Shown: positions 15,001 to 39,062 of the stretch, piece after piece | Numbering within the stretch: the first letter of the stretch is position 1 | How the letters are laid out: each line of letters begins with the position of its first letter | Assembly (NCBI GenBank): GCA_947581825.1 | Contig: CANPVP010000007.1 | Span: 7,543-71,542 of the forward strand | From: an uncultured Clostridia bacterium | Lineage (GTDB): Bacteria > Bacillota > Clostridia > TANB77 > CAG-508 | Direction of reading: 5' to 3' | DNA length: 64,000 nt | The notes under the pieces: model-generated | The model's database searches: none | Seen by the model: only the letters and a program-made list of their open reading frames with translations | What the model was told of the DNA's origin: nothing | Program-made: the position numbers and the translations under genes

Positions 15001-15856
15001 TACAAGTTCTGGAAATTCTAATGTAGATGCTTCTTACAAAGATGGACGTGCAATAGGGCAAGTAGGAAGAGTACAATGGAGTAAGGATTCTATTGCAGGA
15101 GAAAATGGAAATGGCAACAGAGGATACATTTGGATACAAAGATCAGAAGAAGAAATTGTAGGTGCTACATTAGAAATTACTTATAATATAAAAGTTAAAA
15201 ACGAAGAAGATGAAGCAACTAGAAAAGATCAATGGGTAACTATTGTAGATTATGTTCAAGAGGGTATGACATATTCTGATGAGAATAATACTGGTAATGG
15301 ATGGAATCTTCAAAAGGCTACAACTAAAGACAATAAGTCTTCAATTGGTAATATTTATATAAACAAAAATATTGACTTGACAAATGTAAGCACAGTAGTA
15401 ACACAAGACGTAGAATTACAAAATGGAGAATCAAAAGATATTAAGATTACATTAACAAAAACTCTAAATTCTTATAGTAATACTGATATTGATGCATATA
15501 CAAACTATGTAGAAGTAATATTAACAGCAACACCTGATATGGCTAAGAGTGACAAGAATTCTATACCAGGAAACTTCGATCCAAGTCAAGAAACAACATT
15601 AGAAGGAAACTTAGGAACAATATATGATTTACATCAGAATAGACGTGAAATAGAAGAAATACCATATGATCACCCAACTGAAGAAAGAACAACAATGAGA
15701 TTGGAAAGAGATACAGCAAAAGCACTAGAAACAATAAGTATTACAGCGGAAACTGGTGAGAATAGAAATACAGTATATTACATCTTGGCATTCGCAATAA
15801 TAGCAGTATTTGCAACAGGTATAGGAATAATTATTAAAAAAGTAATTAAGAAATAA
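1..15856 (+). CDS. Giant cell-surface fibrillar adhesin-like protein, 5'-partial (reading frame open from nt 2 to the window edge, so the true start lies upstream of the window). Tandem SpaA/Cna-B-type isopeptide domains, SdrD-B-like domains, conserved C-terminal module and a C-terminal TM anchor.
   Basis: 15.6-kb uninterrupted ORF in frame 2 with no in-frame stop from nt 2. Recurrent Cna-B/SpaA signatures, for example KKVDSNGKPVAGIKFTG, TEDRAPANY and LVEEKPPKDY (E-x-x-AP-x-GY type). SdrD-B-like segments such as KITGSVFDDIEGNGWKDEND...TDEDGKYEF...GYYKVKF. C-terminus ends ...ITAETGENRNTVYYILAFAIIAVFATGIGIIIKKVIKK, a hydrophobic helix plus basic tail. Colinear with gene 2 from about nt 22600 onward. 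Confidence 0.85.
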   Translation, partial: VNTNGKYKDGEQTFTLVLTEQESGRYIPLEHDIEIEYTCKYDTTNDKWETKYTKVKYGDKQAEVKVQNSEAQNLTGLLDTDELGLYQKGTDIYVVNKPDFNPAQILLQKKDEEGNLINGITFKGKVEQVNPIEGEKADAVNFEVTTGESKDANGNILQGVALIDNINLSREIKITIESEAWKDKNNKQPLEFPTEPIVITGIEVYDDWEGNIGYKKIRTKDDSGKITVQIGEQEAQTIDVNNKDEASENLVSFTGNDSNVVTFYITNKNKTYDLDGKDADTGIPFPYKVERDILGNEKNVTEGITFTGRIEDSNGEILQDPVTVQFKQNVNSSADGANGEVGIEAKDINGKISVKEGEQEEEYKLIIKENNVSSNNTDAVTVIYTCKYNSDEDEFTSKIKAYEYNGKRYDFNKNMEEVKKDLIPGEVKDDGARININDLYVPIRKFDEYGNLINGVVFKGKIKVNIEKDENGHPKDFNLKEEYDFITVTGGQYWNDETKQMETAPDGVAVIPIPSEVKGDFTITIDEEYWGTYKENKWTTEKGKLPDGQFPLEFVKGVVEIGGYGIKEETKNDITERTVTYNGTTVKYTLNGSEENSEPIEVENYKAVTTDEKGYIRFINNELRYDLKKSTETGEGNNLFDDKFLETSYGYRTKIKEGIYFTGYIVDETKYDEKGNIIKPSVTLQEGRSTKDPEDKNKVTVALDKDTGAIVATGIKGSIAGIDENKTFKFVLEELSSNGENGTLNVVPIDPIVVEYTCKYDRENEKFETAITAYEYKGKKYRMSDIQEQTTVEKDIIPGLVCVKEEESSITDKIGLINHEKTIDIPLVKKDEAGRLVNGIKFTGKIIALDEEYKDENGKPVFETTEETNNNEQPTTKRKSMNFEVVTGEVPTKDSIKLDGSKNEANNSEDKNFTDEDGKPMYTARDGVALIPQIPYTGKVKIIIEKEEWADEDYKPAPGDPDLEFIDGQIEVTFSIVKDKNGEKHINYNGGMQIEVKDRNGQNITNDYMDPKNNQHKIIVGPNYLGKDEKDFAFGISVTNKFKSYDVPIALKVIEEDTNAENEENNENKNIVTVNNKKYRQPTKEEAKEIKFRAEVTDSSGTVVQTLLPLTPDDMAKADAVGIGIEVKDIDSDGKEEAVIIAKGIKGSINKGEDLIIKLQEVYSGGLEPIPDIKVHYKIENGEAKITKYECNGQTDECKQQNNGTCKIKDLIYVSEDGKYALVNKPETGEGPKETTPILTIKKVMNVDGHEVGVPGIYFKIRVCTEECKNDCKDPDKCSCQEGEEPCEKCFDYTAISQAYGLTTFKLTDFAKNKEDITTGKVKVIILEERLATEEDKAKIKENSEETSEDEKTAEVAPYTTEQPGEVKLEFIKNPIVINGIEIKNGEEENGDKQCKVDYTNATVADTNSNVSFDNQVGMQIVFTNKEATFDLDLFKGKMINYIGELEQIYKGVEFEADVVRAEDIKAENIAEVSLQHIVSTTDESTAENTGDNGNLATTGIETNNGKIQIKGIKGTFASESNEEQQENAQQYAVVLRETASEISDAKDMPTMAIVFESKCTTGTDGKCTFTPTIKEYKWQDDNGWHTLNALQNLERDENGNLEQVLVTNRMLRKIENGKEETYIVNTPPTTIIGGGYLPTTVDIPLVKYDENGNLVNGVKFSGHIEVGNQQKMKFSTITGEVPTTTIANGFENVYVARDGVAIIPKIPFTGEVKVVIEKEEWASDAYKPSAGYPDLEFIDGKIEITLTINEDEKGNKHIQQGGISIAVKGKDDKDITDQYIDRKNGNNKVLVGLNSLNKDDNEDNEELLFGIKITNKIKTYDLPIALKVIAEDNENANGANTIKVGDKTYRTPSTEEAKELRFSAEVLDSTGTVVQNLLPLTPEQMQNADAVGIGIATKGSDNKTEAVITAKGIKGSIVGDNLTIRLHEENSAGLEPIPDIDVHYKTIGDDAPKVTSYQCGEKTVENSAPTNGEQCNIEDLIYVSEDGKYALVNKPGTGGGPKETTPELTIKKVINVDGHEVGVPGVHFKIRVCTPECKNDCTDVAKCGCENNNDCDKCYDYEAVSKAGGLATFELTDFSKDTTAQNIDNLKVIILEEKLATEEEKAQLAKEGVEPYTTENPGDVKLEFIKNPITINGIQLKNATEGKKTQCTVDYTNATVADENSNVRIDNNAGMQIVFTNTEATYDLKLFDSKLVYEDNKLKQIYKGVEFEADIVRVEDINAENIAEKSLQHFVSEKAKATANNTGKNGDLGTVGLDESNGQIKLKGVKGTLEGDNGQEYAVMLKETSSEVSDADDMPTMVIVYKCTCTTDGNGKCQFKPEIEEYKWQDDEGWHSLNPTQNIQTGENGQIEKNEIIVDGRVKIQVLDDNNKVVSLINDGGKIELSTSESIKLTKKDSNGNTVGGIEFKGKVIALNADGTPKKEAMSDEQGNIIQGTKNIEYEFDVITDNKGTALIYTPDAKEMPKYEGKIKVVIEDEKWAASVTEPPYKLGFADEIIEITGLELKTETTGQLKNGKIVHTRVIYPEQLTVTSYKKGENGTKTEATNTYKDKVSLGKDSVIGIEIENSILDYDVDLFDAKILKYGEHYEQLNSDVTFSGRIIGYKGKDSKQEAKDYDVEVKLIEENDTTSGQQGTANGKKGKIVAKGINGEITGSGIYLELIEKSINYDVEDVTVIIKYDYTPDAQGKGTPVIKEYRKWKDGVKGEAKGNVSDNTTDLICNAEGDDNAKALIGEMIYKNYSDTAKNSLVNIVTPNPLDLQIKKVDSNGKPVAGIKFTGRIIAVDDKGEARKEKDAQGKEVEIKKEFTTSIANSEEPLQWITSDSDGVASLHLTSEEVNKFAGKIKIEIDSEEWSTDEKDPLRVDSSKRTPLDFIDGKIEITGKKIDVQKDKTSSIINAENNGTPTVKIMKDKEDVTEKYKDRVNANSNEIALSMKNIIKEYDLKLFNKKIINVNGEEIQIKGAITFTGEIKQNDQTYPITIAFGPETDGAIIAKGIRGEIVGDNIKLSVKEAKTIPGIVPVDFDIVYSCTYNDGKFETTISKKTIKDQNTGETLKEINGTNENGDVLEEDITKDGVELQIRKVDEHNVPVAGIKFSGTITSEENNGGKITFSTKATDENGITTIIISKADIEQYIKLGRFNVVIDKEEWDNGAEAKWNAIAGNADRKLQFITSPVTISGYKLFETWDGNYAHRSVDFSGISCEDTEHVELEKDTVTIKFKNNDLTYNIPFIKTDKLLTNDNQDSAEKLKEVSFDISIKESDEDNNPQRFYTTSDDNGRFDIEGVSKFGDNVTLTLKEITSENETAQMLDEPIIITYKTVISNGKVSLENVKINGKEIDAPSDDQVNKTDIEEEKENNIQKIDVQQDEGIVLAGFNVVNFKKYRITIDKDLKVEDTTIDATESVGFKGIITTDPSKVNGNNTIMSYKDFESKLETWKNSSDKDVIYFDGHTTGGKLEIPKDIDFYDKQVYVYFIEYDVPATMTEINEVMWASFNKRITNAEANSASSAGNVEITNTDTLNISIKVVNQAKSYNVNFKKIDAQDPNRQIDYSNAKFTVQLKALKEDNSATEVVDTMDIEFNGLGKIKEQTKPGKYLVDAKFEDNQIKIDVNKFGNLQLVVTEDRAPANYQKLDTDIVINYKANAEASEKDKIITDVQLEKNTNPSIKDKINAKPNAKGNDVSLDFTLPNYPNEYSLTIKKKSRTNPDSILNNIQFQLLFYKNSDNKERFEYLEKTLYVVNGGKVTVDGLKEYGANYMVLHETETDGKVVKLPGYHVFNVEAVVGQKPKLTYLGMFKSDKEKEADYTIEEIDSKFKEQDISKLDKAYSSYFKTDENSVEVGSLVVGNDEPKLYDIDILKIAEEKDAKTGKSNPLEGAIFNLYLTKSDEDYATGENLLDVKYRRQTTPVDGLISIKQLDKYSDKYGDLKLTLVEEKPPKDYKTVFSKIEVTYNTTDGKTIEIKSIKVFDANNKEMSDYKKYVNITNGSTDKKIEESKIEISVLNPHKKSVPLGIKKVYYEETIENGQRTKKEKPISNATFSGVVYEIGNPDDKTPFTSKPTGEDGTVKLGDFYVEGEIEVVIEEISSPDGFEKIPKTTIECYVGEENKATKIDKKYEISTNAIESIEYTNNMNLLKVVDTPIFETDISLAGIVWEDRPTTLSEKEEADYTVVDGNKYVAGEGFYDEGIDKLITSKNADGDATSEVNDVVDGMIVTLHKLERNDKNEWREKNEYTGFAKVTTGDTGRYEFRELDPFAKYYITFKMEGKYNSEDYEHVHFLVEKLNVSGEGDNKTVTIDDYNSIVEAKAANNLESWKRNSKAVADGVESGNGVDPNISTTTQTRNARGNKNGVNKMDNIQKYPVDDYFTIVDKEKYIDENGEYKGAYVLFNVDVTDSQKSNQTIVYADYSTSGKEEDKIEFSSLDPWHDYINYGIVEKPKFDLSLSKDVEELSVKVNDKTMKYIYGNKIDSGHMYTLEINEADISKLADMKIIYKIVVKNESVNPGYLNSIADYYNSDLMKFESWSLDGKNYGKTGVTETEETGLVPEQYITGVVDADGNSTGGTLTVNGANTKRVLIQIPDAEEGNKDKNRTIYSGDENAKTILITYQYDTNKLKENDSLFGKIAKAGDSYVTLGPAEIYSSNSLGGRRDINSINGNLSSKFTGIYNEQLKTFYTNYDNEGAYYQDLRHSLEGETDKDDEDVAPALKILIADPGNRKITGSVFDDIEGNGWKDENDINIKGIKVELYKCDENGNIREDAKPVQSTQTDEDGKYEFVGIETGYYKVKFTYGDENTLLPKLYTSTYNNDLLKYVQELQELPEWNDEENNTIYPRNNENSYNGLEYEDSTQNKIIEYNRGDEYWYKQNRDEAYSDAEDEDASRKKADTTLNESEYSTTTNYYFMDNAKAELLYSYRGDITQEEVQEYIRKLKENSVTATTEKFKINIMDTDSDELTYVTTTESGETQYTDGEHIIDTGCEAQIDFGVKQRPKTNLKVEKTVDNVKIFTSSGNSNVDASYKDGRAIGQVGRVQWSKDSIAGENGNGNRGYIWIQRSEEEIVGATLEITYNIKVKNEEDEATRKDQWVTIVDYVQEGMTYSDENNTGNGWNLQKATTKDNKSSIGNIYINKNIDLTNVSTVVTQDVELQNGESKDIKITLTKTLNSYSNTDIDAYTNYVEVILTATPDMAKSDKNSIPGNFDPSQETTLEGNLGTIYDLHQNRREIEEIPYDHPTEERTTMRLERDTAKALETISITAETGENRNTVYYILAFAIIAVFATGIGIIIKKVIKK
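2470..4929 (+). repeat. Intragenic tandem repeat unit, copy a (about 2.46 kb, roughly 820 aa, multi-domain module containing the 7-Cys insert).
   Basis: Begins gatattcctttagttaaa (DIPLVKKDEAG...) and is colinear, domain for domain, with nt 4930-7090. Stretches are nearly identical at nucleotide level, for example 3628-3710 versus 5938-6020. Confidence 0.8.
4930..7090 (+). repeat. Intragenic tandem repeat unit, copy b.
   Basis: Begins with the identical gatattcctttagttaaa (DIPLVKYDENG...). Same domain order as copy a: VTGEVPT..., ARDGVA.IP, KIRVC-Cys cluster, YAVxLxET..., KEYKWQDDxGWH. Confidence 0.8.
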
Positions 15857-16245: not shown

Positions 16246-19200
16246 ATGGAAAGGATAAAACAAAAACTACTAGCAATAATCCTAATAATAATAGCTGGAA
16301 TAGTAGGATACCAAGCATATGTTATGGCACATGGATATCCAAGAGCAATTGGACAGGGTGTACCATTTTGGTCAAATGGATCTATGGTGTATTGTAGAGA
16401 GCATAACAATGGTTGGGGCTATGGACAAGGAGCTGCTGATAGAGCATCCTATTATGTATGCGTTGGCGAAGTTAGCACGGTGGCTAAACAAGCTGATGGA
16501 CTAGCATATTATGTATCTAGAGCAAGTGCAAGAAGTATACAGGATTTAATATGGAGTAAAAGTGGATCTAGTGCAGGACAATCAATAATAAATATGGGAA
16601 CTGATTTTAGAAGTTGGTTTGCACCATGGGGCAGTGATAATTTTGCAAATTTATTTTCTATAAATGAAGGAAATAAAGAAACAGGAAATGAAGAAAAAAA
16701 TTCAGCTTCAATGGAGGCTTTACGCAAAGATGTTACTGTTAAAGTTGTTGATGAACTTCCTGACTGGTTTTTTACAAATGTAAATGCTGGTTCTGTAGGA
16801 GAAAGTGATAAAAAGAATAATAGTACAGCTCTTTCTGATAGTGAAATAAACGTGATTATTAAGGAATATGAAAAAAATCACACAAAGGAAGAAACAGAAG
16901 CTTTTAAAAAAGAATTAAAAGATGCACAAAATAACGAGAAAATAATCGAAACAACAGTAAACAAGGTAATTAATACTATAAAAGCAAAGAGTATAGACAT
17001 AAATAGATTTACTGAAGAGCAGAGTAATGAACTTAAGGCAGAAATTCAAAAAGAAGAAGGTATAAAAAATAGTATTATTCCAAGTAAGAAAAAAGAAATT
17101 GAGCAACAAATTAAAAATAAAGAGAGAGAAAATGTAAATGATATAAATAAAGTAGCAACTGAAGAAGTAACAGAAGATATTTTACAAAGAGCAGTAACAA
17201 AAATTGAATTAGAGCAAAATGAAAAAGAAGAAGAGAAAATAGAAAAAGAATTAAAGAAAATAGAAGAACTTTTAGAAAAAGAAAATTTACAACAAGATTT
17301 AAGAATAATAAAAGAAGATTTAAAGACTATAAGAGATAATTGGAATACTACAAAAGAAAAGTACAAAGCAAATCAAATAAGTGTAGAAGATTATAAGAAA
17401 ATAGAAGATGAATACTATAACAAAGTATTAAAAGATATACAAACAATTTTAGTAAATAATTATGAAAATACTGAAGAGTTGAATCAATATAAAGGAAATC
17501 AAGATGCAAGTGAAGAAGAATCTTATAATTTAGTAGACTTAATAGTAGAACAATCAGGCAAAATAAGTGATATATCTTATGATGAATATAAATATTTATA
17601 TGATATGCATAAATTATTTCAATTTTTTGGTAGTTACAAAAACCAAGCAAATACCTTTTTAGATGGAAATGTAAATTCAGAATCATGGAATTTATTATTA
17701 AGACATTTAAATAGTTATTCATCAGATGGTACAAGTAATTTATTAAGAAAAGTAGATAAAAATATCTCAATGGCTGATAAAAATTCTACAACATATGTTT
17801 CAAATGTAACTCAACTTGATCAATCTAAAATAGTTTCAGTAGAAAGTAAAGATAATTCATATGGAACTGCTGTAGACATTTATGCACATTATCAATTAAA
17901 TTTAACAAGCGAACAACAAGCAAAATTGAATAGCATGAATAATGAAAATGAGAAAAGAGAATATCAGAAAACAATTGGACAAACATTATGGGCTTATCAA
18001 TCAGATAGAAAAAAAGATAAAGATGGAAAAGAGATTACACATCAAATAACAATAGATGGACAACAAAAAACTTATTATGAATATGAAAAAATATATTTTG
18101 AAGATCAAGCAGATTCTGTTGTTTCTTTCTTTAGTGAAGAACTACTTTGTATAGGAACAGACGATCAAGATGGTGTAATTGGTACAAATGCAAGCGAAAC
18201 TAGTGCTTTATTAAAATATATTGAATGCTTTAAAGATGATGCAAAGGGTACTACAGAGTTTTGTTCGTTTATAAAGAATAAATATCCTAATTTAGCAAAA
18301 CAATTATCAGAAGCAAAAGGAAGTAATTTAAGCGAAAGAATAATAAATTTATATAATAAATATACAAGCAAAATAACAAATATCTGCCAAGAAGATAATT
18401 CAGAACATTACTATGTATATAAAAATAAAGTGGAAGAAAATTATTGGGATCTTAATTGGGGAGATACAAAAAAAGCAGCTAGATTATATCAATGGTTGAT
18501 GACAAGAGATGCAGAAGGTGTAACTAACATAGATAAAATAGCAGGTCAATTTTCAATTGATGATACTGATGCAAGGGTTTCAATAGATAGAGTAAGTGGA
18601 AAATATCTTATTGGACCATATACAATAAATTATTCAACTTTGATATTAAATGGTGAGAAATTATTAGGAATAGATGATTTTTCAGTATTGTTATCAATGG
18701 GAGAGAATGGAAAAGAAGTAAATAAAGTTCTAACTCAAGGAGATGGAAAAGACCAATATAATATAGTTTGTATGAAAGGTACAACAAGAAATATTAAAAA
18801 TAAAGATGGAAAAACTATAGAAGTTCCTAAGAGTGGAAATTCATTCTTTATTGAATTAGATAAAGATGTAAAAGGTAATGGAAAACGTTTAACAGAAAAT
18901 GATATATTTAAATTTAATATTTCATATGAATACTTAAAGCAAATAAATGCAACAGTTCACTTATTAAGAGATAGTGCAAGTGATGCATCTAGTGGTACTC
19001 CTGATATATGGAATTCTTCTCACCCTCAAAGATTAATGACATTTACTTGGAGATCAGAAAGAGATTATATTGATAAGTCTATTGCAACTAGTACAAGAGA
19101 GTATGACTTTAAATTGAGAAAAACTGATAAAGAAACAGGTAAAGGTGTTAATGGTGGTAAATATATTGCTGCTGCAAAATATAAAAATTCAAAAGATGGT

Positions 19201-25200: not shown

Positions 25201-28200
25201 ACAGGTGAAAAACAAAAAGACATAAATGGTCAAAATTGTAAAGATCCAAAAACAGGATTAGAATATCCATCATATGATGGTGTAGCTACAATCTACGGAA
25301 TTACTAAAGATTATGTTGGTAAAGTTAGAATAACTATTACTGAGGAAAAATGGAAAGATGGTAAAGAATTATCACCAAAAGAAAATGAAGTTAATTTCGT
25401 TGATGACATTATTGAAATTATTGTAGATGTAAAAGAACAAACAGAACAAGATGGAACAAAAAAATTAGTTGTTGACTATGGAGAAAACTTAAATTGGAAT
25501 ACATATAGCAAAAACTCAACAACTGAAAATAGCAGTTTATCAGAAGAATTAAATGAAAAAATAGAGGAAGTAATAAAAGCAAAAGGACAATCTACAACAG
25601 AAAATTATAAAGTAAAAGAAAATGATGAATTTGCATCAGCACTTTTAGATATTGACACATACAATAATGACAAGAAACAAGATGATGTTATCGGAATTAA
25701 AGTTGTAAACGAAGTTAAAACTTACGATATTGAAATACCAAAAGTAGTTGAAGTAGAAAAAGATGGTAAGAAGACATATAGAGCGTTAACTCCAGAAGAA
25801 GCTGCAGAACTTAGATTTACAGCTAAGATTTATGATTCAACTTATAATGGAGAAAATACAGATGCAAAACCAATACAAGAACTTGATGGAAATCATGTAA
25901 GAGTAGTTGTTCTTGATGAAAAAGGAAATGAAATAAAAGAGGGAACAACAAATCAAGAAAATAACAATAATAAAACAAAATCAGTTATTAGAGTTTCTGG
26001 AATTAGAGGTTCTATAATAGGAGAAAGTTTAACACTTGTTTTACATGAAGAGGCATCTGGAGGAATTCAAAAAATAGAAAAAGACATCCAAGTTACATAC
26101 AAATATACTAATAATGAAGCTGATAAGGATGGAAAACCAGAATTATTAAAATTCAAAGATCCAAATGTGGAAAATGGAAACGGTATAATAGATGTTAAAC
26201 TAATAGAAAAAGAAGATAAAAATGAAGAATTTAAAGAAACTAATGTGTCTACAAATCCATATTTAGTAGTAACTGATGAGGGTGTAGCAATTGTTCAAAA
26301 AGAAAAAGAAACAACTCTTGCAATTAAAAAAGTTAAAAAAGTAAAAGATACAAATGGAAATGAGGTAGAACAACCTGTTTCTGGTATCAAATTTACTATA
26401 AGAGTTTGTGGAAGTTGCGAGAAAGAGTGTGCTAAAGACCCATTAAAATGTACATGCGGAGATGATTGCACAAAATGCAAAACATTAACTGCAACTTCAG
26501 ATGAGCATGGATTAGCAGAATTTACAGGAATAACAGAAACTGGCGAAGTTAAAGTAGTTATTCTAAAAGAAGAATGGGATACTACACAATTAACAGAAGC
26601 AGAAAAAGAAGGAAATGACAAGATTGAGTTTATTAATGAACCAGTTGTAATTTCTGGAATTAAAATAAAAAAAGGCAAAGAAGAAGAAAATGCCAATATA
26701 GTAGATTATACCAATGCACAAGTAGTAGAAAGCAGTGGAGAAAGCAAAGCTAGTAGCCATGTAAGTATAAATAAAAACTTTGGTATTCAAATTGTATTTA
26801 AAAATGATACTGCAACATATGATTTAGAGGCATTTGATAGCAAAGTTACAAACTACAATGGAACAATAGAAAAAGTATTGAAAGATGTTACTTTTGAAGC
26901 TGTTATAGCAAAACATAAAGACGGTGCACCTGATATAACCATACCAGATGGAAATACTACATTTAACTTAAATGACGTATATGAAAGAAGTGATAAGGCA
27001 GAAGATAAATTACAATATATCGGTCCATTTGGAATAAGCAGTGATGGAAAAATAAGAGTAGAAGGCATTAAAGGAACAATAGCAAAACAAGTAAAAGCTG
27101 AAGAACAACAAACACAAGCAAATAGTACTGAAACAGAAGGTACATATGATGTTATATTAAGAGAAGTATCATCAAATATGACACCAAATTCAGATGAATC
27201 AACAGATGGAGAAAAAACAGAAGAGATTAAGAGACCAATTATAAAAATTGTATATACTTCTACATGCATAACTGATAAAAATGGAAATAGCTCATTTAAA
27301 ACAGAAATAAAAGAGTATGTATGGAAAGATAGCGAAGGAAAATCACATAAATACATTCCAAATTCAAAAGTACAAGTAGTTGATGAAGGACCAGCAACAA
27401 CATTAGAAACAAATAATAATGTTGCTAATGGAAAAGAAATTGAATTACAGTATTCTGAATCATTTGGAGAAGTATTATATGTTCATAAAGATGGAAAAGT
27501 AAGTTTAATTAATACTGAAAAAAATCCAGTTGCAATTAACTTAAAGAAAGTAGATAGTAATGGAAATCCAGTTAGAGGAATTAAATTTACAGGAAAAGTA
27601 ATTGCATTATTAAATGTAAACGATAAAACTTTAATTCCTAAAGAAGAGCTTACTGATACAGAAAATGGACAATTAATGCAAAAGAGAATTGAATTTAACT
27701 TTGGTGGAAACGATACAAATTCTGGTAGAACAAATTATAGTGGTGTAGCTTTACTTGAAATACCTGAAGATGAAATATTCAATTATGAAGGTGAACTTAA
27801 AGTTGTAATCACTAACGAAGAATGGGTAGATAGCACCAATAAACCTGTATTAGGATTCCCTAATGAGCCATTTGCAATTACTGGATTAACTCTAAAAACT
27901 GATCCACAAACACATAAGAGCAGAATAGAGTATGGAGATATAAAAGTTGAAAAATGTGATGTAAATGGAAATACACAAGAAGGAGAATCTGCATATAAAA
28001 ATAAAGTAAAGAAATATAGTGTTGATGATGGAGAACAACAAGGAACAGAAATATTAGGAGTTTCTGTAGAAAACCCAATCTTAGACTATGATTTAGATTT
28101 AGGTTATAAATTATTAAAATCTGGAGATGAACTTATACCTTTAAAAGAAGGTGTTGGATTTAAAGCTCAAGTATACAAAGATGGAAAAAAAGAAGCAACA

Positions 28201-34200: not shown

Positions 34201-36285
34201 GAAAAAATATCAATTTATGTAAAATATAATTATAAACCAGACAAATTAGTGGACGAACATAAGAATTTATTCGGTAAGATAAATGAAGTAAATTCATCAT
34301 ATGTTACTCTAAGTGTAGCAGAAATATATGAAAGTTCAGGCGAAGGTGGAAGAAAAGATATTAATTCTGAAAATAATAGCTTAGAGAATAAATTTGTAAA
34401 TACGTATAAACGTGTATTTAATGATTTCTATGATTATGAGAGCGATAACCAATACTATTGGGATTTAAGTCATAAACAAGAAGGCGAATTTGATATATAT
34501 GATGAAGATGCAGCACCAGCAATGAAATTATTAATTGAAAACCCATCAACTAGAAAAATAACTGGACAAGTATTTGATGACGAAAATGAAGATGGAATAA
34601 TGAATGAAGGCGAAGTTGGTATTGATGGTGTAAAAGTAAGTATTTATGATGAATATGGAACTAAGATTAAAGACACAGTAACATCAACTAATAAAGCAGA
34701 CGGCTCAAATATTGCAAATAAAGGAACATATGAATTTAATGGAATTCCAGAAGGAAAATATAGTCTAGAATTCACATATGGTGATGAAAATACAGTATTA
34801 CCTAAGTTATATACTGAAAGTACAGATGAGAATGGAAATATCATGAAAGATACTAATGGAAATATAGTTATAGCTGATGATAATACAAATAGTAATTGGA
34901 TATATAATGGACAAACATTACCAAGAAACAATAATAAGTCATATAATGCATTAGAATATCAAAGTACCAATGCATATAAGATAGAGCAAGATAATGATTT
35001 CTGGTATAGAGATGAAAAGAGAGCTAATACAGTTTACTCTGATGCTACAGATGATTCTACAAAGAGAGCTGCAGCAGATAATACATTAAATACTAATGGA
35101 AAAGGTATTATGAACAATGCAAAAGCCGAATTATTGTACTCATACAGAGGAAGTGAATATAATAAGGATTATATTGAAACTTTAATAAATAATGCAGTAT
35201 CTGCAAAAACAAATAAGTTCAAAATTAATAGTATGAATACAGAATCAACAGAATTCTCATACACAGGTGATACAGAAGATGGTTCTTCATATGAAGACGA
35301 GCATGGAAATCTTGTAGGAACTGGAAGCAATGCAAAAATAAACTTCGGTGTTAGACCTAGAGAGATGACAAATCTTAAAGTTGTAAAGAAAGTAGATAAT
35401 GTAAAAATCTATACAAGTAGTGGAAATTCTAATGTAGATGCTTCTTATAACAATGGAACAGTAGGACAAGCAGGAAGAGTTCAATGGTCACCAGGTAATG
35501 AACAAAACGGTAATAGAGGATACATTTGGATTCAAAGATCAGAAGAAGAGATTATAGGAGCTAAATTAGAAATTACTTATAATATAACTGTTAGAGATGA
35601 GTCAGAGGATAAAATAGCTGGAGAAGAGGTAACAATTGTAGATTATGTTCAAGATGGAATGAACTTTGATAAAAATAGCTATGAGGATAATAAATCTTGG
35701 GAGATTGCAACAGCAAGCACTAAGGACAATATAAGTAAAATAGGAGATGTTAATATAAACAAAAATATTGATTTGACAAATGTAAGTACAGTAGTAACGA
35801 AAAAAGTAACATTAGATGAAAATGGAGAATCAGAAGATATTAAGATTACATTAACAAAAACTCTAAATTCTTATAGTAATACTGATATTGATGCATATAC
35901 AAATTATGTAGAAGTAATACAAACAGTAACTCCAGGATTAGCTAGAAAGGATAAAAACTCAATACCAGGAAACTTCGATCCACAGAGGGAAACAACTATT
36001 GAAGGAAACATTGGAGCAATTGGTAACTTACAGAATGTAATTACTAAAGCTTTAATAAGCCGTGAAATAGTATTAGTACCATATGATGGACAGGTACCAA
36101 CCGAATATGAAAATGAAAGCATAAGACTAGAAAGAGATACAGCAAAAGCACAAGAAACAATAAGTATTACAGCAGAAACTGGTGAAAACAGAGCTACAAC
36201 ATATTATATCTTAGCATTTGCAGTAATTGCAGTATTTGCAACAGGGGTAGGTGTAATTGTTACAAAAGTAATTAAGAAAAAATAA
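16246..36285 (+). CDS. Giant cell-surface fibrillar adhesin-like protein (6,679 aa). Signal peptide, unique head domain, long E/K-rich coiled coil, then more than 30 Cna-B/SpaA-type and SdrD-B-like domains, a conserved C-terminal module and a C-terminal TM anchor.
   Basis: 20,040-nt ORF with RBS. N-terminus MERIKQKLLAIILIIIAGIVGYQAYVMA (h-region plus AxA-like site). Classic Cna-B motifs such as FFKADEDGKPLAGATFTLANKDP...TDTDGYMEF and IEVEEIEAPNGY. SdrD-B-like segment ITGQVFDDENEDGIMNEGEVGIDGVKVSIYD...GTYEFNGIPEGKYSLEF. C-terminus ITAETGENRATTYYILAFAVIAVFATGVGVIVTKVIKKK. Confidence 0.9.
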   Translation: MERIKQKLLAIILIIIAGIVGYQAYVMAHGYPRAIGQGVPFWSNGSMVYCREHNNGWGYGQGAADRASYYVCVGEVSTVAKQADGLAYYVSRASARSIQDLIWSKSGSSAGQSIINMGTDFRSWFAPWGSDNFANLFSINEGNKETGNEEKNSASMEALRKDVTVKVVDELPDWFFTNVNAGSVGESDKKNNSTALSDSEINVIIKEYEKNHTKEETEAFKKELKDAQNNEKIIETTVNKVINTIKAKSIDINRFTEEQSNELKAEIQKEEGIKNSIIPSKKKEIEQQIKNKERENVNDINKVATEEVTEDILQRAVTKIELEQNEKEEEKIEKELKKIEELLEKENLQQDLRIIKEDLKTIRDNWNTTKEKYKANQISVEDYKKIEDEYYNKVLKDIQTILVNNYENTEELNQYKGNQDASEEESYNLVDLIVEQSGKISDISYDEYKYLYDMHKLFQFFGSYKNQANTFLDGNVNSESWNLLLRHLNSYSSDGTSNLLRKVDKNISMADKNSTTYVSNVTQLDQSKIVSVESKDNSYGTAVDIYAHYQLNLTSEQQAKLNSMNNENEKREYQKTIGQTLWAYQSDRKKDKDGKEITHQITIDGQQKTYYEYEKIYFEDQADSVVSFFSEELLCIGTDDQDGVIGTNASETSALLKYIECFKDDAKGTTEFCSFIKNKYPNLAKQLSEAKGSNLSERIINLYNKYTSKITNICQEDNSEHYYVYKNKVEENYWDLNWGDTKKAARLYQWLMTRDAEGVTNIDKIAGQFSIDDTDARVSIDRVSGKYLIGPYTINYSTLILNGEKLLGIDDFSVLLSMGENGKEVNKVLTQGDGKDQYNIVCMKGTTRNIKNKDGKTIEVPKSGNSFFIELDKDVKGNGKRLTENDIFKFNISYEYLKQINATVHLLRDSASDASSGTPDIWNSSHPQRLMTFTWRSERDYIDKSIATSTREYDFKLRKTDKETGKGVNGGKYIAAAKYKNSKDGSIAYFDLERQIKSYNSFEEFKAAAEAQDVSTYISESQPEGNGYILWNDIPESIAEVERTTEDGTVILSSDKIWTLECIEVEEIEAPNGYSIPTIDEIKVSNGCTINNKGSYYTVSIPTSSSEGEITWPEPSVPKDYYIPIKKVDNNGKPIDDLKLEYWFADLTVASGEWDSQNWKYGSGNRQQAITGHRIYAEKGKKPGKQLNGMAYLTNNMYSDAILLVIEEKPAEGYDYQYFQKIAMVYSAKQGAKGPEIKFLKAEDIKNTIAKQNLANWENEAEREVIQNNNWENGVLFVKDKTGSIIESSAKKVEGKEGQGIYVNAEVTLEELNNEIVEIINDEIPPYSLELFKFEDSGEYNPNLAGTRFKVWITMGNREEAAYEKEITVKEEKDENGKKIYVAKAEGIRIYGDNLALHIQEKYAKPGFESKLTVKTIALIYKAQVVFENGKVKPKLTILENTPNESLFVSNNSNLPDEFNGHPITVVNEDTISGICVGIENERAPHYLRFFKADEDGKPLAGATFTLANKDPREEGFNSSNEIGTDTSDTDGYMEFAIPSEVKGENKEYTLYLYENSSGDGHIYSDTSKNNPVIIKYQYVAGDDSITGLSIIHNGKDLTDNWTKVQNKEFTKENKKLHCQQTVQDQERTKEDGTKETVKVNVNSIKNNGYIFDFGNLKEIFLLTNNPVPYSLDWDKVEAETDIPLGNAKFEVSIVQSDGDLSNTIKEIVEDLAKDNTYILPSGVRFAKYKNDDTELPIKNLGKLINDGKQEGQDIVSNNEEGENKGRVSVDNIVTYGECYAFIKEIQTVGAHQLLNDIIVVHYKINKGETKPTILDDIYVYTPASNDKEAKVTKYLRSNGVYKDDNGKVYTNVSMDGNTLQIINQKAPYSLEINKTNALSGRPIKDVAFRAIIRHKNENGEPKVVDISRTTESGKITINDIYEYSVNDNDLITLELYETVPEYYNYFDKNKASELVYIADYIKKGANEPLQQKTGYMIINPITGEGNKIESFDKIGDTSKILFTISEVGQSNGQNDSNSSLHTVKIPNMPTYNLQAEKKEEFNGQLNNVDINGISFTGKIRKGGVNENGDVIQNGQSANAKELDVRNFTVYLKEYTSNGLKSVMVSAEGIDTHSAFFDESGNLNNNAQTFTLVLEEASNGKYAIEHPIEIEYTCQPDTDNGIWKTEYKKIKFNDKTVDIPAGQETVLIDTEELGIQVAKDGHLILINKYKFEPIQILLQKKDENGKLIDGISFEGLLEQDESKLMAGKEPRKIAFGVKPVYGKVTEIDPITTGEKIAPDGKQYNGVAVLDNIDFGGAVKLTITKEYWKDPTDKPALNFQEEPIEISGMYIAEYKKGNVTYRKLTVPNNKITVKVGNGEAKEVDITKTEALNEFVSFSSDGNVSTFYITNQYKRYNLDGNDEDKDDTPPPFSDKVIRDVQGNDTEYKNEDKKIQFTGIITDSNGEVLQNDVKVTFEKKETQNAEGKESKVSIKALDINGSISGKDENGKEKEFKLVLKENTDDEPITVIYTCTYDSSSDEFTANIIGYEYKGIRYNKDDKENNPEQKDDIVPGRVDNDGSLINYNKLYIPITKHDEKGNLVNGVVFKGTVEYPKDENGHPTKFGENGQSSWDFETVTGGKYYDFAEDEYKTAPDGVAVIVVPYEMDGDFIVTITDEYWGTKEDDTWTTTRGTMPDEQPYDLEFMEVDAAIKGYSVKKEKVDEWKTVSKLYYNGNKVEYTVENMEDEAVNVTAYNYIDVDKDGHIKFVNDEIRYNLDENTKPLFDEKIKVDSLGNAFQVKDNISFTGYIKDTDGKTLQEGQSINEEIRDKDKFTVGLDSEGRIIATDILGEISGDENTEFYFVLQELGEGEGQPLEITVIYTSVYNKQTRTFDITIKGYEYNGERYDITTETGDNTFNEIVKGYVWHKQENGEEKRDLINVLETSIPLIKYEEAKKSEGGQPILRNGIQFTGKVEAVEERVGSNGIKEYTTKKNAEGNEISQYFKIVTGEKQKDINGQNCKDPKTGLEYPSYDGVATIYGITKDYVGKVRITITEEKWKDGKELSPKENEVNFVDDIIEIIVDVKEQTEQDGTKKLVVDYGENLNWNTYSKNSTTENSSLSEELNEKIEEVIKAKGQSTTENYKVKENDEFASALLDIDTYNNDKKQDDVIGIKVVNEVKTYDIEIPKVVEVEKDGKKTYRALTPEEAAELRFTAKIYDSTYNGENTDAKPIQELDGNHVRVVVLDEKGNEIKEGTTNQENNNNKTKSVIRVSGIRGSIIGESLTLVLHEEASGGIQKIEKDIQVTYKYTNNEADKDGKPELLKFKDPNVENGNGIIDVKLIEKEDKNEEFKETNVSTNPYLVVTDEGVAIVQKEKETTLAIKKVKKVKDTNGNEVEQPVSGIKFTIRVCGSCEKECAKDPLKCTCGDDCTKCKTLTATSDEHGLAEFTGITETGEVKVVILKEEWDTTQLTEAEKEGNDKIEFINEPVVISGIKIKKGKEEENANIVDYTNAQVVESSGESKASSHVSINKNFGIQIVFKNDTATYDLEAFDSKVTNYNGTIEKVLKDVTFEAVIAKHKDGAPDITIPDGNTTFNLNDVYERSDKAEDKLQYIGPFGISSDGKIRVEGIKGTIAKQVKAEEQQTQANSTETEGTYDVILREVSSNMTPNSDESTDGEKTEEIKRPIIKIVYTSTCITDKNGNSSFKTEIKEYVWKDSEGKSHKYIPNSKVQVVDEGPATTLETNNNVANGKEIELQYSESFGEVLYVHKDGKVSLINTEKNPVAINLKKVDSNGNPVRGIKFTGKVIALLNVNDKTLIPKEELTDTENGQLMQKRIEFNFGGNDTNSGRTNYSGVALLEIPEDEIFNYEGELKVVITNEEWVDSTNKPVLGFPNEPFAITGLTLKTDPQTHKSRIEYGDIKVEKCDVNGNTQEGESAYKNKVKKYSVDDGEQQGTEILGVSVENPILDYDLDLGYKLLKSGDELIPLKEGVGFKAQVYKDGKKEATQKPNQEPDVVLNAADGKITAKAIKGDIIGNDIELILTETENGHIVKDMEITIVYSYNPDGNPNDKPTITEYKWKEKQEDGTEVDKSYKVPQDGTTGGDGEEAKNTQIGNMIYTNYKELVGIINEVIPNPLDIQIEKRDSNGATVAGIKFEGRIVAVDKNGQERKDENGKAIEKTFTTTIDKEDGTQETLNWITTDTTGIAKLHLTKEEVNKFAGNIKIEISKEDWSTDDRDPLKVDPEQRTPLDYIDGTIEITGKKINVEENSQSSIINDGEVTVTIKNNGKDVTEQYKDRVDAKAPGEISVSMKNIIKKYDLELFNKKIINVNEEEVQIKGDITFTGEIKQNDKTYPITIAFGPETNGAIIAKDIRGEIVGENITLSVKEEKTISGIIPVDIDIVYSCSYNDGKFITAISKKTIKDQNTGEILKEINGTDENGNVLEEDVVRTGVEIPIKKVDQQGKPVEGIKFTGYVISNNKNSKDEGVAFNVTTNEYGIANIALKADYSNKDNVIDEIKDKGLLGNFKVVIEKEEWAEGAEATWRAIPGNEHRKLKFVANNTEIAGFEMQEAISENIVIRTVLFDKATCNNTHVQVDKNNITINVDNPDLTYDIPFIKTDELMNEENKDKVNRLANIEFYVTIESGSDKQEFKPKTDENGMFTLENIHVFSSDTTPVTLTMKELPPADLGIQILKEPIVITYYTVVNNETGEVSFKDVKIVQNGTEQNDNNTDKIVDYIQVTLGDKEYKLINIVNHKAYSITLDKKIRVNGNEDNKVKDVIEEIGFTGCVTTNPERFGVTQSKDESGNIQYKIDKIAFEANLNPSATKDLTDTIYFSGTTANGKLEIPDITFYDRQVYVIFKEFFVNGKEPSSMECTDEVMVASFNRRISNVESTSTSSDNVTFTSIEPLNISIQVVNEAINYKVKLKKVDTDDKSRLIDYKGSQFTITLKELEDDKEVTETTDQVTLVFDEEEEIDKTLSTALPSKYIVGAQLVTETDENGNVKLDTDGTPLKYIELELNKFGNNLQLVATEDKAPAGYEAYNGDIVITYSTPEPGENKENSNITIKEIVGESVTATTSNDNNVLSLNFELPNSPKPYPLEFFKVSKETNKKLNNIQFQILFMRKIDSENWERILEDKGRLFNTVAGKITIPDIHNYGTYYMVLKETETPKNTVRLEGYHIVEVNAEIDKTPTLIYKGTFAEYGYTDKETLVDNDETIKQVLLDAKNAIENNFVEIQKNNLTEKYKAYFKNKTEANDNFYFTVENDSSIDYKINVLKKDISNHDKDLDGAMFDLYLVKANMPYTTETNLIREQDRKGETVDGKITLDLGYSEEHYSKNTYTEEQIEAIRNGTNTEALGDMLKLVLVETNPPKDYKSEFSRIEVTFYTHDGKDIKIIDIKVFDEVGNEIENKYAEYVDRNEPKEAEITLAAYNTKKIGVPLQIKKVYYKEVVVEENGQKVIKKIEQPLEGAAFSGVVYEKGKVKAGTEFSNVTTNKDGIANLGEFYVEGDIVIDITEVKVPAGFEEIDETNIECTVDGKKITDYSISTNAVEEIDWVNETNQIKIIEGVDIKYDISLQGFVWEDRPADTGTKHEDDYTVKGVATEGLYDDGVDLKIKTTDKENNPTTEISDVEDGVIVNLYNYDTGELLQQTTTYDDGLYTFKISDPFAKYYVTFEMRGKYNYDNYENVKFLVKSIETEQQNGVEENKINQYNNINDAISAAEGNLESSNWMYNSKAILDETTDKNQKLDQNTAVTTNKNTASGNRNTVRPENVQAYPIYDYFTIQNDNKLGMFVVYKQISGNNTNPDYTIANVQEDKNPNVEGYTPITFEILDPIHKYINFGIVEKTEFWLTLEKYVEEMKMTLGDDKNETPYTYEFGKYEGDKMYTLNINKADLGKLKNLDIIYRIDVLNESITDGTLKSIADYYNSDIMEYAGYAINLKADSEGKIDFDKVNWNTDKMPEDPTHKENLIPEQWSTDDVIIQRAQATTGKQIIELKPTDQYISSHEKISIYVKYNYKPDKLVDEHKNLFGKINEVNSSYVTLSVAEIYESSGEGGRKDINSENNSLENKFVNTYKRVFNDFYDYESDNQYYWDLSHKQEGEFDIYDEDAAPAMKLLIENPSTRKITGQVFDDENEDGIMNEGEVGIDGVKVSIYDEYGTKIKDTVTSTNKADGSNIANKGTYEFNGIPEGKYSLEFTYGDENTVLPKLYTESTDENGNIMKDTNGNIVIADDNTNSNWIYNGQTLPRNNNKSYNALEYQSTNAYKIEQDNDFWYRDEKRANTVYSDATDDSTKRAAADNTLNTNGKGIMNNAKAELLYSYRGSEYNKDYIETLINNAVSAKTNKFKINSMNTESTEFSYTGDTEDGSSYEDEHGNLVGTGSNAKINFGVRPREMTNLKVVKKVDNVKIYTSSGNSNVDASYNNGTVGQAGRVQWSPGNEQNGNRGYIWIQRSEEEIIGAKLEITYNITVRDESEDKIAGEEVTIVDYVQDGMNFDKNSYEDNKSWEIATASTKDNISKIGDVNINKNIDLTNVSTVVTKKVTLDENGESEDIKITLTKTLNSYSNTDIDAYTNYVEVIQTVTPGLARKDKNSIPGNFDPQRETTIEGNIGAIGNLQNVITKALISREIVLVPYDGQVPTEYENESIRLERDTAKAQETISITAETGENRATTYYILAFAVIAVFATGVGVIVTKVIKKK
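25010..27360 (+). repeat. Third copy, in gene 2, of the roughly 2.4-kb multi-domain module that is duplicated in gene 1.
   Basis: SIPLIKYEEAK...VTGEKQKD...IRVCGSCEKECAKDPLKCTCGDDCTKC...YDVILREVS...KEYVWKDSEGKSH is colinear with gene 1 units a and b. Confidence 0.7.
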
Positions 36286-37230: not shown

Positions 37231-37306
<76 letters not shown>

Positions 37307-37350
37307 TTGTTGCTTTAATTAATAATAAATAAAAATTGGAAAGAGAAAAA

Positions 37351-37812
37351 ATGGAAGAAAAAGAAATATTCATGAAACAAGCTTTAAAAGAAGCAAAAAA
37401 AGCTTATGATAAATTAGAAGTTCCAGTTGGTGCTATTATTGTAAAAGATGGAAAAATAATAGCTAGAGCACATAATTTAAAAGAAACCAAAAAAGATACA
37501 ACGAAACATGCAGAAATATTAGCAATCCAAAAAGCAAGTAAGAAATTAGATACATGGAGATTGATAGATTGCGAAATGTATATTACTTTAGAACCATGTA
37601 CTATGTGTATGGGGGCAATTATAAATTCAAGAATAAAAAAAATTTTTATAGGAACCATGGATCCAAAAACTGGAGCATGTGGGTCAGTATTAAATTTAAA
37701 TGATGATTATACTTTCAATCACAAAGTAGAAATAGAAACAGGAATTATGAAAAAAGAGTCGGAAGAATTATTAAAAGATTTTTTTAATAAATTAAGAACT
37801 TTAAAAAAATAA
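37351..37812 (+). CDS. tadA: tRNA-specific adenosine deaminase TadA. The ORF is open from TTG 37336, but ATG 37351 is the likelier start.
   Basis: CMP/dCMP deaminase zinc motifs HAEILAI and PCTMCMGA. About 150 aa. The tRNA-adjacent tadA-ffs-dnaX arrangement is conserved in Firmicutes. Confidence 0.85.
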   Translation: MEEKEIFMKQALKEAKKAYDKLEVPVGAIIVKDGKIIARAHNLKETKKDTTKHAEILAIQKASKKLDTWRLIDCEMYITLEPCTMCMGAIINSRIKKIFIGTMDPKTGACGSVLNLNDDYTFNHKVEIETGIMKKESEELLKDFFNKLRTLKK

Positions 37813-37834: not shown

Positions 37835-38572
37835 ATGGAAGTTTCAAGAAGAGCTATACATATAGTACTTATTATATGCATAATAGTTGCTGTTGCAATT
37901 TTTGTTGGAGTAACAATGCAAAGATATGAAATTGAAGGCGAAAAGAATATGCCATTTGAGCTTTCAAAAATAATGATATTTAGTACTGCTGAAGGCTTTG
38001 CAAATGAAAAAAGTGATTATAAATGGGACTTTAATATTTTTCAAAATAATGATATTTATATAAGCATAGCAAAAAATGATGATTATAAAAAAACAGAAAT
38101 TATAGATAAAATAGTAATTGATAATTTTTCAATAGATGAAAAACCCAAAAAGGGTGAATTAGTAGTTTATAAGCCAAATATAGAAACAGCAACACCTTTT
38201 AAATGTGATGAAAAATATGAAGTAAAAGATGTGTTAGAATTTACGGGTGAAACAGAAGCAAATGTAGAAAAATTGCAAATTGCAAATCAAGGTGGAATGA
38301 TAATTTTTAGAATTTCTAATAAAAATCTTCATAGATACCAATCAAATGATGATAAAACAATAGTACATGATGGAACTTTGTTGGCAAAGGCTAATATAAA
38401 AAATGAAGATATAAAATGCAAAGTGTCTTTTGATATAACCATAGAGTTAAAATCAGAAAAAAAATATAAGGGAACAATCACTTTAGAATTGCCAGAAGGA
38501 AATATATTAAAAAATGGTCAAGAAAGCTTAGAAATAACAAATTTTGATGATGTAGTATTTAAGAGAATATAA
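37835..38572 (+). CDS. Hypothetical membrane-anchored protein (N-terminal TM helix).
   Basis: ORF with AGGAG RBS. N-terminal hydrophobic segment IHIVLIICIIVAVAIFVGV. No recognisable catalytic motif. Confidence 0.55.
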   Translation: MEVSRRAIHIVLIICIIVAVAIFVGVTMQRYEIEGEKNMPFELSKIMIFSTAEGFANEKSDYKWDFNIFQNNDIYISIAKNDDYKKTEIIDKIVIDNFSIDEKPKKGELVVYKPNIETATPFKCDEKYEVKDVLEFTGETEANVEKLQIANQGGMIIFRISNKNLHRYQSNDDKTIVHDGTLLAKANIKNEDIKCKVSFDITIELKSEKKYKGTITLELPEGNILKNGQESLEITNFDDVVFKRI

Positions 38573-38931: not shown

Positions 38932-39062
38932 AGTAGTTAGAATCTTACCTTTGTACGGAGAGTAATTTCAATAGAGCCCCATGAACCTCGTCAGGTCTGG
39001 AAGGAAGCAGCGATAAATGGGATACTTTATGTGAGTAATTACTTTCCGTAGAGAGGTAAGAT
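38932..39062 (+). ncRNA. ffs: Signal recognition particle RNA (4.5S/scRNA-like, apparently short form). The 3' end is uncertain.
   Basis: Domain IV consensus GTCAGGTCTGGAAGGAAGCAGC (E. coli GUCAGGUCCGGAAGGAAGCAGC) at 38990-39011. It sits at the apex of a roughly 117-nt hairpin, cttacctttgtacggagagtaatt...aattactttccgtagagaggtaag. Position immediately upstream of dnaX, as in Bacillus. Confidence 0.7.

Follow-up and report, generated by a model that had tools for sequence, protein, structure and literature searches.

Two giant surface protein genes in tandem

The window analysed here, a stretch of 64,000 nucleotides of contig CANPVP010000007.1 from an uncultured Clostridia bacterium (assembly GCA_947581825.1), derives from the chromosome of a Firmicute-type bacterium with a low GC content (~28%). 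It carries two giant genes in tandem on the + strand, and our analysis concerns the N-terminal head of the protein encoded by the second. Gene 1 is open at the window start and ends at 15856, with more than 5,200 amino acids (aa) of its product visible. Gene 2 (16246-36285, + strand), defined from the open reading frame (ORF) list and its translation, encodes a 6,679-aa secreted, wall-anchored giant surface protein. It has its own ribosome-binding site, and a terminator-like hairpin is recognisable in the sequence between the end of gene 1 and gene 2. Residues 2053-6666 of the gene 2 protein are 37% identical to the gene 1 protein, and nothing in the visible part of gene 1 corresponds to its first 1,000 residues.

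The gene 2 protein begins with a signal peptide (aa 1-28, MERIKQKLLAIILIIIAGIVGYQAYVMA; 16246-16329, +), which is predicted to be cleaved after VMA. The head proper (aa 29-135; 16330-16650, +) follows directly. The first-pass annotation of this DNA, made from the letters alone, had placed a globular domain right after the signal peptide, and the peptide that it quoted is exactly residues 29-133. It had also described the underlying DNA as GC-richer than the rest of the gene, which we can confirm: the GC content is 0.40 for residues 29-135 as compared to 0.29 for residues 946-6679, and the head marks the maximum among all 411-nt windows of gene 2. The excess resides in codon positions 1 and 2 and barely in position 3 (GC at position 2, 0.54 vs 0.31; at position 3, 0.19 vs 0.13), and it thus reflects the G/A/R/S/W-rich amino acid composition of the head and not foreign DNA. 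Horizontal transfer is for the same reason ruled out as the source of the GC bump.

The head defines a small family of giant proteins

We searched exhaustively with HMMER, using residues 25-190 as the query, against 1.84 billion cluster representatives, among which the gene 2 protein is P0001. The search recovered five real relatives, namely P0002 (6,806 aa), P0003 (3,645 aa), P0004 (3,874 aa), P0006 (3,768 aa) and P0008 (5,291 aa); two further matches were repeat junk. In all five relatives the head stands directly after a conserved signal peptide, and the overall identity across the six family members is 27-37%. No relatives were found in contig scans of 185,579 GTDB species representatives, or among the Joint Genome Institute (JGI) metagenome contigs scanned. 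The sole habitat information for the family comes from P0006, which originates from run SRR17049900, a faecal metagenome of Mongolian gazelle (PMC8965509).

The description of the head as unique holds within the window only, since P0002 has the same head and is 55% identical to gene 1. This identity extends over the whole visible gene 1, starting at P0002 residue 2258. Because gene 1 so closely resembles a head-bearing protein, it almost certainly has, judging from the alignment, a head of this kind not far outside the window. The starting point of the alignment moreover suggests that the full-length gene 1 protein probably comprises ~7,400 aa, including a glutamate/lysine (E/K)-rich insertion that would also lie off the window.

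The signal peptide is conserved to an unusual degree across the six-member family. Its K-rich n-region and its GYQA c-region are shared, and M1, K5, K7, G21, Y22, Q23 and A24 are invariant. This suggests a family-specific type of secretion signal, comparable in spirit to the YSIRK type.

Two motifs of the head resemble those of thioester domains

Two short motifs in the head had originally drawn attention, and both are present. The first is YCREH (aa 49-53; 16390-16404, +), in which C50, R51 and E52 are invariant and C50 is the proposed thioester Cys. The second is IQDLIW (aa 98-103; 16537-16554, +), in which Q99 and W103 are invariant and which lies in a predicted helix (residues 95-105). The Cys is not the lone one of the head, as had been stated, since the predicted strand that follows carries a second, C72 (16459-16461, +); both Cys residues are conserved without exception in the six homologues, and C72 is a possible disulfide partner of C50. 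The complete set of head residues invariant in the six sequences comprises P40, C50, R51, E52, N55, Y70, C72, A83, A87, Y88, Q99, W103, G111, I114, N116 and F125. At the motif level, every member has [YFL]-C-R-E, with the Cys at the end of the predicted strand 46-50, and [IVF]-Q-x-x-Φ-W, where Φ is hydrophobic. Q99 follows C50 at a distance of 49 aa, and W103 at 53 aa. Over the 6,679 aa of gene 2, the pattern [YFL]C.ζ occurs once and Q..ΦW twice, and both motifs at a spacing of 40-70 aa are found in 0.07% of head shuffles.

Thioester domains (TEDs) of Gram-positive adhesins have three motifs: [YFL]CΦζ on strand C, which includes the bonding Cys; TQxxΦW, located in helix α2; and a weak ΦQζΦΦ motif, which holds the bonding Gln on a late β-strand (PMC4450167; PMC6194298). 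The TQxxΦW motif adjoins the thioester bond, and neither its Gln nor its Trp is needed for bond formation (PMC6194298; PMC4450167). Of all TED residues, only the two that form the bond, Cys and Gln, show universal conservation (PMC6194298). TQxxΦW, which is common but not universal, lies on the central helix, 50-60 aa after the Cys. The TED fold combines a six-stranded β-barrel with a three-helix bundle and brings the Cys and Gln side chains next to each other. In class II TEDs a β-sandwich is inserted ahead of the hairpin that bears the Gln.

Compared with these motifs, IQDLIW is by its sequence the equivalent of the TED α2 motif and not of the bonding-Gln motif. In the class II domain of EfmTIE86 the corresponding landmarks are Cys88 and Trp146 (PMC6194298), and in SaTIE, according to our alignment of 6FX6, the Cys and the Gln of the TQ motif are 54 aa apart. 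The likeness to TED motifs proposed in the first-pass annotation is retained for the Cys motif, whereas the assignment of IQDLIW as the Gln motif has to be replaced by the non-bonding TQxxΦW of helix α2. The objection raised there, that the Cys-Gln spacing is shorter than in known TEDs, falls away for the same reason: an α2 motif 49 aa after the Cys, as compared to 54 aa in SaTIE, is at the distance shown by real class II TEDs.

Structure prediction with AlphaFold2 (AF2) gives the following order of elements in the head: strands 30-33, 41-43, 46-50 and 68-77, and helices 84-92 and 95-105. This is the order of the TED N-terminal lobe (N-lobe), which has three short strands, a fourth strand and two helices, with C50 at the end of the third strand and Q99 and W103 in the second helix.

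Profile comparisons with class II thioester domains

For profile comparisons we obtained the sequence of TIEpLS20, the class II TED protein of plasmid pLS20, via a published primer and collected ten diverse plasmid class II TEDs by tblastn. A TED profile of 3 sequences was too thin for hhalign, and a 13-sequence class II profile, comprising TIEpLS20, the ten plasmid TEDs, P0009 and P0010, was built instead. The 13 plasmid TEDs together with the SaTIE fragment yielded a 14-sequence profile of the N-lobe. As a positive control, the 13-sequence profile finds the SaTIE TED (6FX6) in the PDB with 25 bits and E=1e-4, over the N-lobe only. TIEpLS20, whose TED is experimentally supported, scores 28.8 bits against Pfam TED_2, for which the cut-off is 27, and 23.5 bits against Pfam TED; a phmmer search with it found no TED in the PDB. 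TEDs thus appear to be intrinsically hard to detect, and since a genuine one barely passes in Pfam and the SaTIE control reaches no more than 25 bits, the absence of a Pfam match is weak evidence against a TED.

When the profile of the family head is compared with the 14-sequence N-lobe by hhalign, 77-79 columns are aligned with a score of 22.1 (P=0.003, probability 10%). The alignment places Cys on Cys and AYY on LYYG, and pairs IQDLIW with the TQMLIW of SaTIE. Column shuffles score 10.7±2.5, and none of 120 reaches 22.1; the reversed profile scores 16.2. The gene 2 head alone scores 21.9 against the N-lobe, which ranks it first among 110 consecutive 107-aa windows of genes 1 and 2. The other windows score 10.9±2.3, the next best 18.3. 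Local matches to the plasmid class II TEDs include FC[VIL]EH against YCREH, ILYYG against LAYYV, and, far downstream of the head, YQRLM against PQRLM.

Since IQDLIW matches the α2 motif, a bonding Gln has to be sought far downstream. Only two Gln residues downstream of the head are invariant in the family, Q749 and Q928. Q928 lies in SSHPQRLMTFT (aa 924-934; 19015-19047, +), a ΦQζΦΦ candidate in which Q928-R929 is invariant and which forms a β-strand in the AF2 model of a chimera. Its family context is [PS]QR[LF][MI], on a strand after a β-sandwich, and QRLM is identical to part of the YQRLM around the modelled bonding Gln256 of TIEpLS20. From the sequence context, Q928 is the best, if unproven, candidate for the bonding Gln, 878 residues after C50. 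Q749 is less likely, as it lies in a predicted helix with the context YQWLM, and Q112 (GQSII) is ruled out, as it is not conserved in P0002 or P0008. A profile joining head and tail is collinear with the TED profile over 193 of its 240 columns and places the Cys and Q928 on the bond-forming positions; its hhalign score is 24.1, as compared to a shuffle null of 14.0±2.6 that reaches this value in none of 120 cases (P=0.014, probability 3%).

The head as a possible N-lobe of a highly diverged class II-like thioester domain

Our favoured interpretation, which we hold to be about evenly balanced between right and wrong, is that the head is the N-lobe (β-strands A-D and helices α1-α2) of a class II-like TED that has diverged very far, located at the distal tip of a giant fibrillar adhesin with sortase-type anchoring. 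The proposed TED membership draws on the motifs and on weak profile-profile similarity. C50, Q99, W103 and Q928-R929 are invariant in all six members at an overall identity of 27-37%, and the order, spacing and predicted secondary-structure contexts of the motifs match those of TEDs. Moreover, the architecture is typical of TIE proteins (PMC4450167): the head follows the signal peptide directly, the repeats are SdrD_B/SpaA-like, and the C-terminus bears a T[AP]ETG sorting motif. The layout of signal peptide, N-terminal domain, Ig-like repeats and C-terminal sortase signal, here in its T[AP]ETG variant, is thus found in the gene 2 protein.

If this interpretation is correct, C50 would form an internal thioester with a Gln side chain after secretion and cleavage of the signal peptide. 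Q99 and W103 of the IQDLIW helix would pack against the Cys backbone, as TQxxΦW does in solved TEDs. An amine of a target, typically of a Lys, could then attack the thioester, which would leave bacterium and target joined covalently by an isopeptide link. The Gln partner of the bond would be Q928 in HPQRLM, on the β-strand just after the β-sandwich as in class II TEDs, and not Q99.

A number of observations weigh against this interpretation. None of the six proteins matches Pfam TED or TED_2 at E<=10, or a thioester-domain model of NCBIfam at E<=1, so that the search for thioester-domain hidden Markov models (HMMs) proposed in the first-pass annotation came back empty for the head. Sequence and profile searches of the PDB with gene 2 aa 1-1000 and with alignments A1 and A2 returned nothing relevant. 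The hhalign probabilities are low, 3-10%, and below conventional thresholds. Although the sandwich aligns in a collinear manner with that of class II TEDs, the similarity of the sandwich/Gln half to the TED lower lobe is not significant (its score is reached by 10 of 120 shuffles and is 16th among 62 windows), and this half cannot be told apart from the other β-domains of the body. The position after the Cys is Arg in all six sequences and not hydrophobic, and with C72 there is a second invariant Cys, which points to a disulfide instead. There is also no precedent for a Cys and a Gln lying 520-880 residues apart. Furthermore, the motifs were noticed post hoc. Finally, the structure prediction and fold search on the head, which had also been suggested at the outset, yielded a TED-like order of strands and helices but with low confidence, the predicted local distance difference test (pLDDT) values in the head being 40-74 in both models. 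One model covers the 965-aa module (mean pLDDT 50) and the other the chimera, a head+tail deletion construct (pLDDT 57, predicted template modelling score 0.62). Foldseek searches of the PDB with both models found no TED and no significant match, only generic β-sandwich noise.

Alternative explanations

The head could instead be a novel non-TED globular ligand-binding domain, in which a structural disulfide links C50 to C72 or one of the two is a free surface thiol, and whose likeness to TEDs is coincidental or convergent. We regard this as possible, if somewhat unlikely. It would fit two invariant Cys residues 22 residues apart on consecutive predicted strands, the lack of any HMM or fold match to TEDs and an hhalign probability of at most 10%; with six clusters among the 1.84 billion representatives, the head could be an orphan fold. 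It speaks against such a domain that the head ranks first of 110 windows against the TED profile and scores above all 120 shuffles, with Cys on Cys. The two N-lobe motifs, moreover, occur in the right order, spacing and secondary-structure context, a combination seen in 0.07% of shuffles, and the third, C-terminal Gln motif is also in the right order. A simple hairpin register would, in addition, leave C50 and C72 offset by about four residues, as far as the low-confidence model suggests. Should the head not be a TED, it would be an orphan Cys-containing adhesive domain, with its six clusters a modest but real addition to known adhesin tips. It is also conceivable that the head is a degenerate TED lobe that has lost its thioester chemistry and binds non-covalently, with Q928 conserved for structure only. 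That the N-lobe similarity is supported and the Gln half is not would be explained in this way, as would the Arg after the Cys and the enormous insertion between the Cys and any conserved Gln. We nevertheless consider this improbable, because the Cys, the Q/W helix and the Q-R-Φ-Φ strand are all invariant at 27-37% identity, which would be unexpected with lost chemistry, and the two bond-forming residues, Cys and Gln, are the only ones that all TEDs share (PMC6194298).

Two further explanations carry still less weight. The sequence C-R-E-H puts Cys, Glu and His side by side, with C50 and E52 invariant, and this could point to a Cys-dependent enzyme (a peptidase, a transglutaminase-like or an autoprocessing enzyme) that uses C50 together with H53 or E52. 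H53 is, however, Leu in P0008, no peptidase family matches in Pfam or NCBIfam, and the predicted location of C50 is a β-strand end, not the N-terminus of a helix. In papain, NlpC/P60 and transglutaminase folds, the catalytic Cys is at a helix N-terminus. An enzyme of this kind is thus very unlikely. The model originally proposed, a compact TED of ~130 aa with a C50-Q99 thioester on a coiled-coil stalk, appears hardly tenable. Both of its residues are indeed invariant, but Q99 is part of the QxxΦW helix motif, which in solved TEDs lies beside the bond and does not form it (PMC6194298; PMC4450167). The bonding Gln of TEDs sits on a β-strand after three helices, and the presumed stalk is missing from four of the six homologues.

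The N-terminal module and its E/K-rich insertion

Judging from the alignment, residues 29-~945 behave as one conserved N-terminal module. The head is followed by a variable G/N/E-rich linker (aa 136-160) and then the conserved segment DVTVKVVDELPDWFF (aa 161-176; linker and segment together 16651-16773, +), identified in the alignment, with invariant F175 and F176 and pLDDT values below 50. An E/K-rich helical insertion (aa ~180-437; 16783-17556, +) comes next, which the alignment shows in gene 2 and P0002 only. The conserved middle region (aa 438-760; 17557-18525, +), of mixed helical and β character, contains alignment invariants from I440 to Q749; AF2 confidence is low here, and no Pfam or PDB match was found for it. 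Finally, residues 761-912 (18526-18981, +) form an all-β sandwich that AF2 predicts with a pLDDT of 70-85, and it is after this sandwich that the Q928 strand is located.

The E/K-rich region had been described as a coiled coil. It is indeed E/K-rich (residues 201-435 contain 34.5% E+K and 1.3% G+P), and AF2 predicts long helices over residues 198-406 (pLDDT 40-60). The coiled-coil assignment itself is not borne out, as the heptad contrast is only ~2 standard deviations above shuffles and patchy, being strong in two patches only (219-246 and 317-372). Nor does the region act as a stalk between tip and shaft. In P0003, P0004, P0006 and P0008 it is absent, and the flanking segments, '..D..P..FF' and 'I.DISY.EY.YLY.L', are only 9-15 residues apart. 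Between the same flanks, gene 2 has ~257 E/K-rich residues and P0002 ~370. Because four of six homologues lack the region and join its flanks so closely, the alignment identifies it as a lineage-specific loop insertion, the two ends of which must meet, and not as a stalk. It is probably an antiparallel hairpin or bundle.

Provided that Q928 is the bonding Gln, residues 29-~945 would constitute one 'split' TED module. Its insertion, which measures ~520 aa in the shortest homologue and 878 aa in gene 2, would exceed all described ones by far, and the E/K-rich residues 180-437 would be a further lineage-specific helical excursion within it. We therefore raise, as a tentative and rather doubtful proposal, that the family represents a new TED class, a single 'split' domain with its Cys lobe and Gln strand 520-880 residues apart, with a conserved α/β region and a β-sandwich in between, to which two lineages add a helical E/K hairpin of ~260-370 aa. 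The tip of these adhesins, which have 3,600-6,800 residues and come from uncultured bacteria of the herbivore gut, would then contain a very large topological loop closed by the reactive bond, and such a loop might place formation or exposure of the bond under the control of the inserted domains or of force.

Relation to known adhesins

The closest known counterparts are class II TEDs, represented by BaTIE (6FWV), the SaTIE TED (6FX6), the EfmTIE86 TED and TIEpLS20 of pLS20. Like the head, they are N-terminal, right after the signal peptide of a wall-anchored, repeat-rich protein. They have in common with the head a [YF]C.E(H) Cys motif on a strand, followed 49-54 aa on by a QxxΦW helix, and with the whole gene 2 module, as predicted, a β-sandwich inserted before a Q-R-L-M strand. 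The similarity of the N-lobe profiles is weak but specific. In contrast to class II TEDs, the head has no Pfam TED, TED_2 or NCBIfam match, an Arg after the Cys and a second invariant Cys. Moreover, an extra 300-650 aa, made up of the conserved mixed α/β region and the E/K insertion, separate helix α2 from the sandwich. The distance from the Cys to the candidate Gln is ~520-880 aa in the head family, where the thioester is predicted from the sequence, as compared to 171-204 aa in class II TEDs. Class I TEDs (SfbI-TED, Cpa, CpTIE and PnTIE) follow the same three-motif logic and share the proposed covalent-adhesion chemistry (PMC4450167). Their helix α0 and the ~10-residue linker before their Gln strand (PMC6194298) are not recognisable in the head family. 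With the giant Gram-positive fibrillar adhesins that are built from SdrD_B, SpaA or Cna-B repeats, the gene 2 protein shares a β-rich body of several thousand residues, an SdrD_B match, a sorting signal and tandem paralogous genes. It differs from them in that most of its body matches no Pfam family and in its sorting motif, which is T[AP]ETG and not LPXTG.

To our knowledge, TEDs are the only route by which bacterial adhesins bind targets covalently. Recognised TED diversity consists of two structural classes, mostly from cultured pathogens and conjugative plasmids. If our interpretation holds, the head would be a third, HMM-invisible TED variant, carried by some of the largest bacterial proteins. 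It would broaden the range of TED chemistry to uncultured Firmicutes of the gut (one homologue at least is from Mongolian gazelle faeces), and it would mean that insertions of hundreds of residues are compatible with the TED fold. The six sequences would, moreover, serve to build more sensitive TED models.

Body and C-terminal anchor

The first stalk domain of the 'Y.F.L.K.D' type starts at about residue 948 of the gene 2 protein. Pfam searches with all of genes 1 and 2, and at E<=10 with the N-terminal modules of the six family members, detect only SdrD_B and CarboxypepD_reg, near the C-termini. The Cna-B shaft that had been assumed for gene 2 is accordingly reduced to a single SdrD_B region near its C-terminus. 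Of the host-binding adhesin architecture proposed in the first-pass annotation, the tip on a giant anchored surface protein is retained, and the choice of Gln, the lone Cys and the stalk are not.

Both the gene 1 and the gene 2 protein terminate in ISITAETGENR, a hydrophobic helix and a Lys-rich tail. In gene 2, the sorting signal recognised in the sequence (TAETGENR, hydrophobic helix, KKK tail) is at 36169-36282 (+), and gene 1 carries the same signal at 15743-15853. All five relatives likewise end in IT[AP]ETGENR, a hydrophobic helix and a basic tail, with ITPETGENR in P0006. From its sequence and position, T[AP]ETG looks like a variant of the LPXTG sorting signal. NCBIfam searches with the N- and C-terminal 1,000 aa gave no match, the sorting signal included, and no sortase gene turned up in those window ORFs that were scanned.

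Within the otherwise Cys-poor repeat body of the gene 2 protein, residues 3388-3411 (26407-26478) contain 7 Cys in 24 residues (RVCGSCEKECAKDPLKCTCGDDCTKCK). A similar cluster is present in P0002. Judging from its composition, it may be a metal-binding or disulfide-knot insert.

Genomic setting

Immediately downstream of gene 2 are genes for a tRNA (37231-37303) and the bacterial small signal recognition particle (SRP) RNA (38954-39053). They adjoin genes for a TadA-like deaminase (37336-37812) and an unannotated 245-aa ORF without a Pfam match (37835-38572). The region 3' of gene 2 comprises tilS-like, tadA-like, dnaX, ybaB, recR, rpoB and rpoC genes, together with an LCP-family gene, mecA, radC, mreBCD and genes for PBP2, minC and a D-Ala-D-Ala carboxypeptidase.

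The window is matched by metagenome assemblies in the European Nucleotide Archive (ENA), e.g., by NODE_107 of ERZ27249643. P0004 is found in the same ENA assemblies as the window contig and at the same coverage (~6-7x), and from this co-assembly it is probably a paralogue in the same genome, which suggests that there are several such adhesins per genome. On its own ENA contigs, P0004 has as neighbours a GGDEF response regulator and a PMT_2 glycosyltransferase-family gene.

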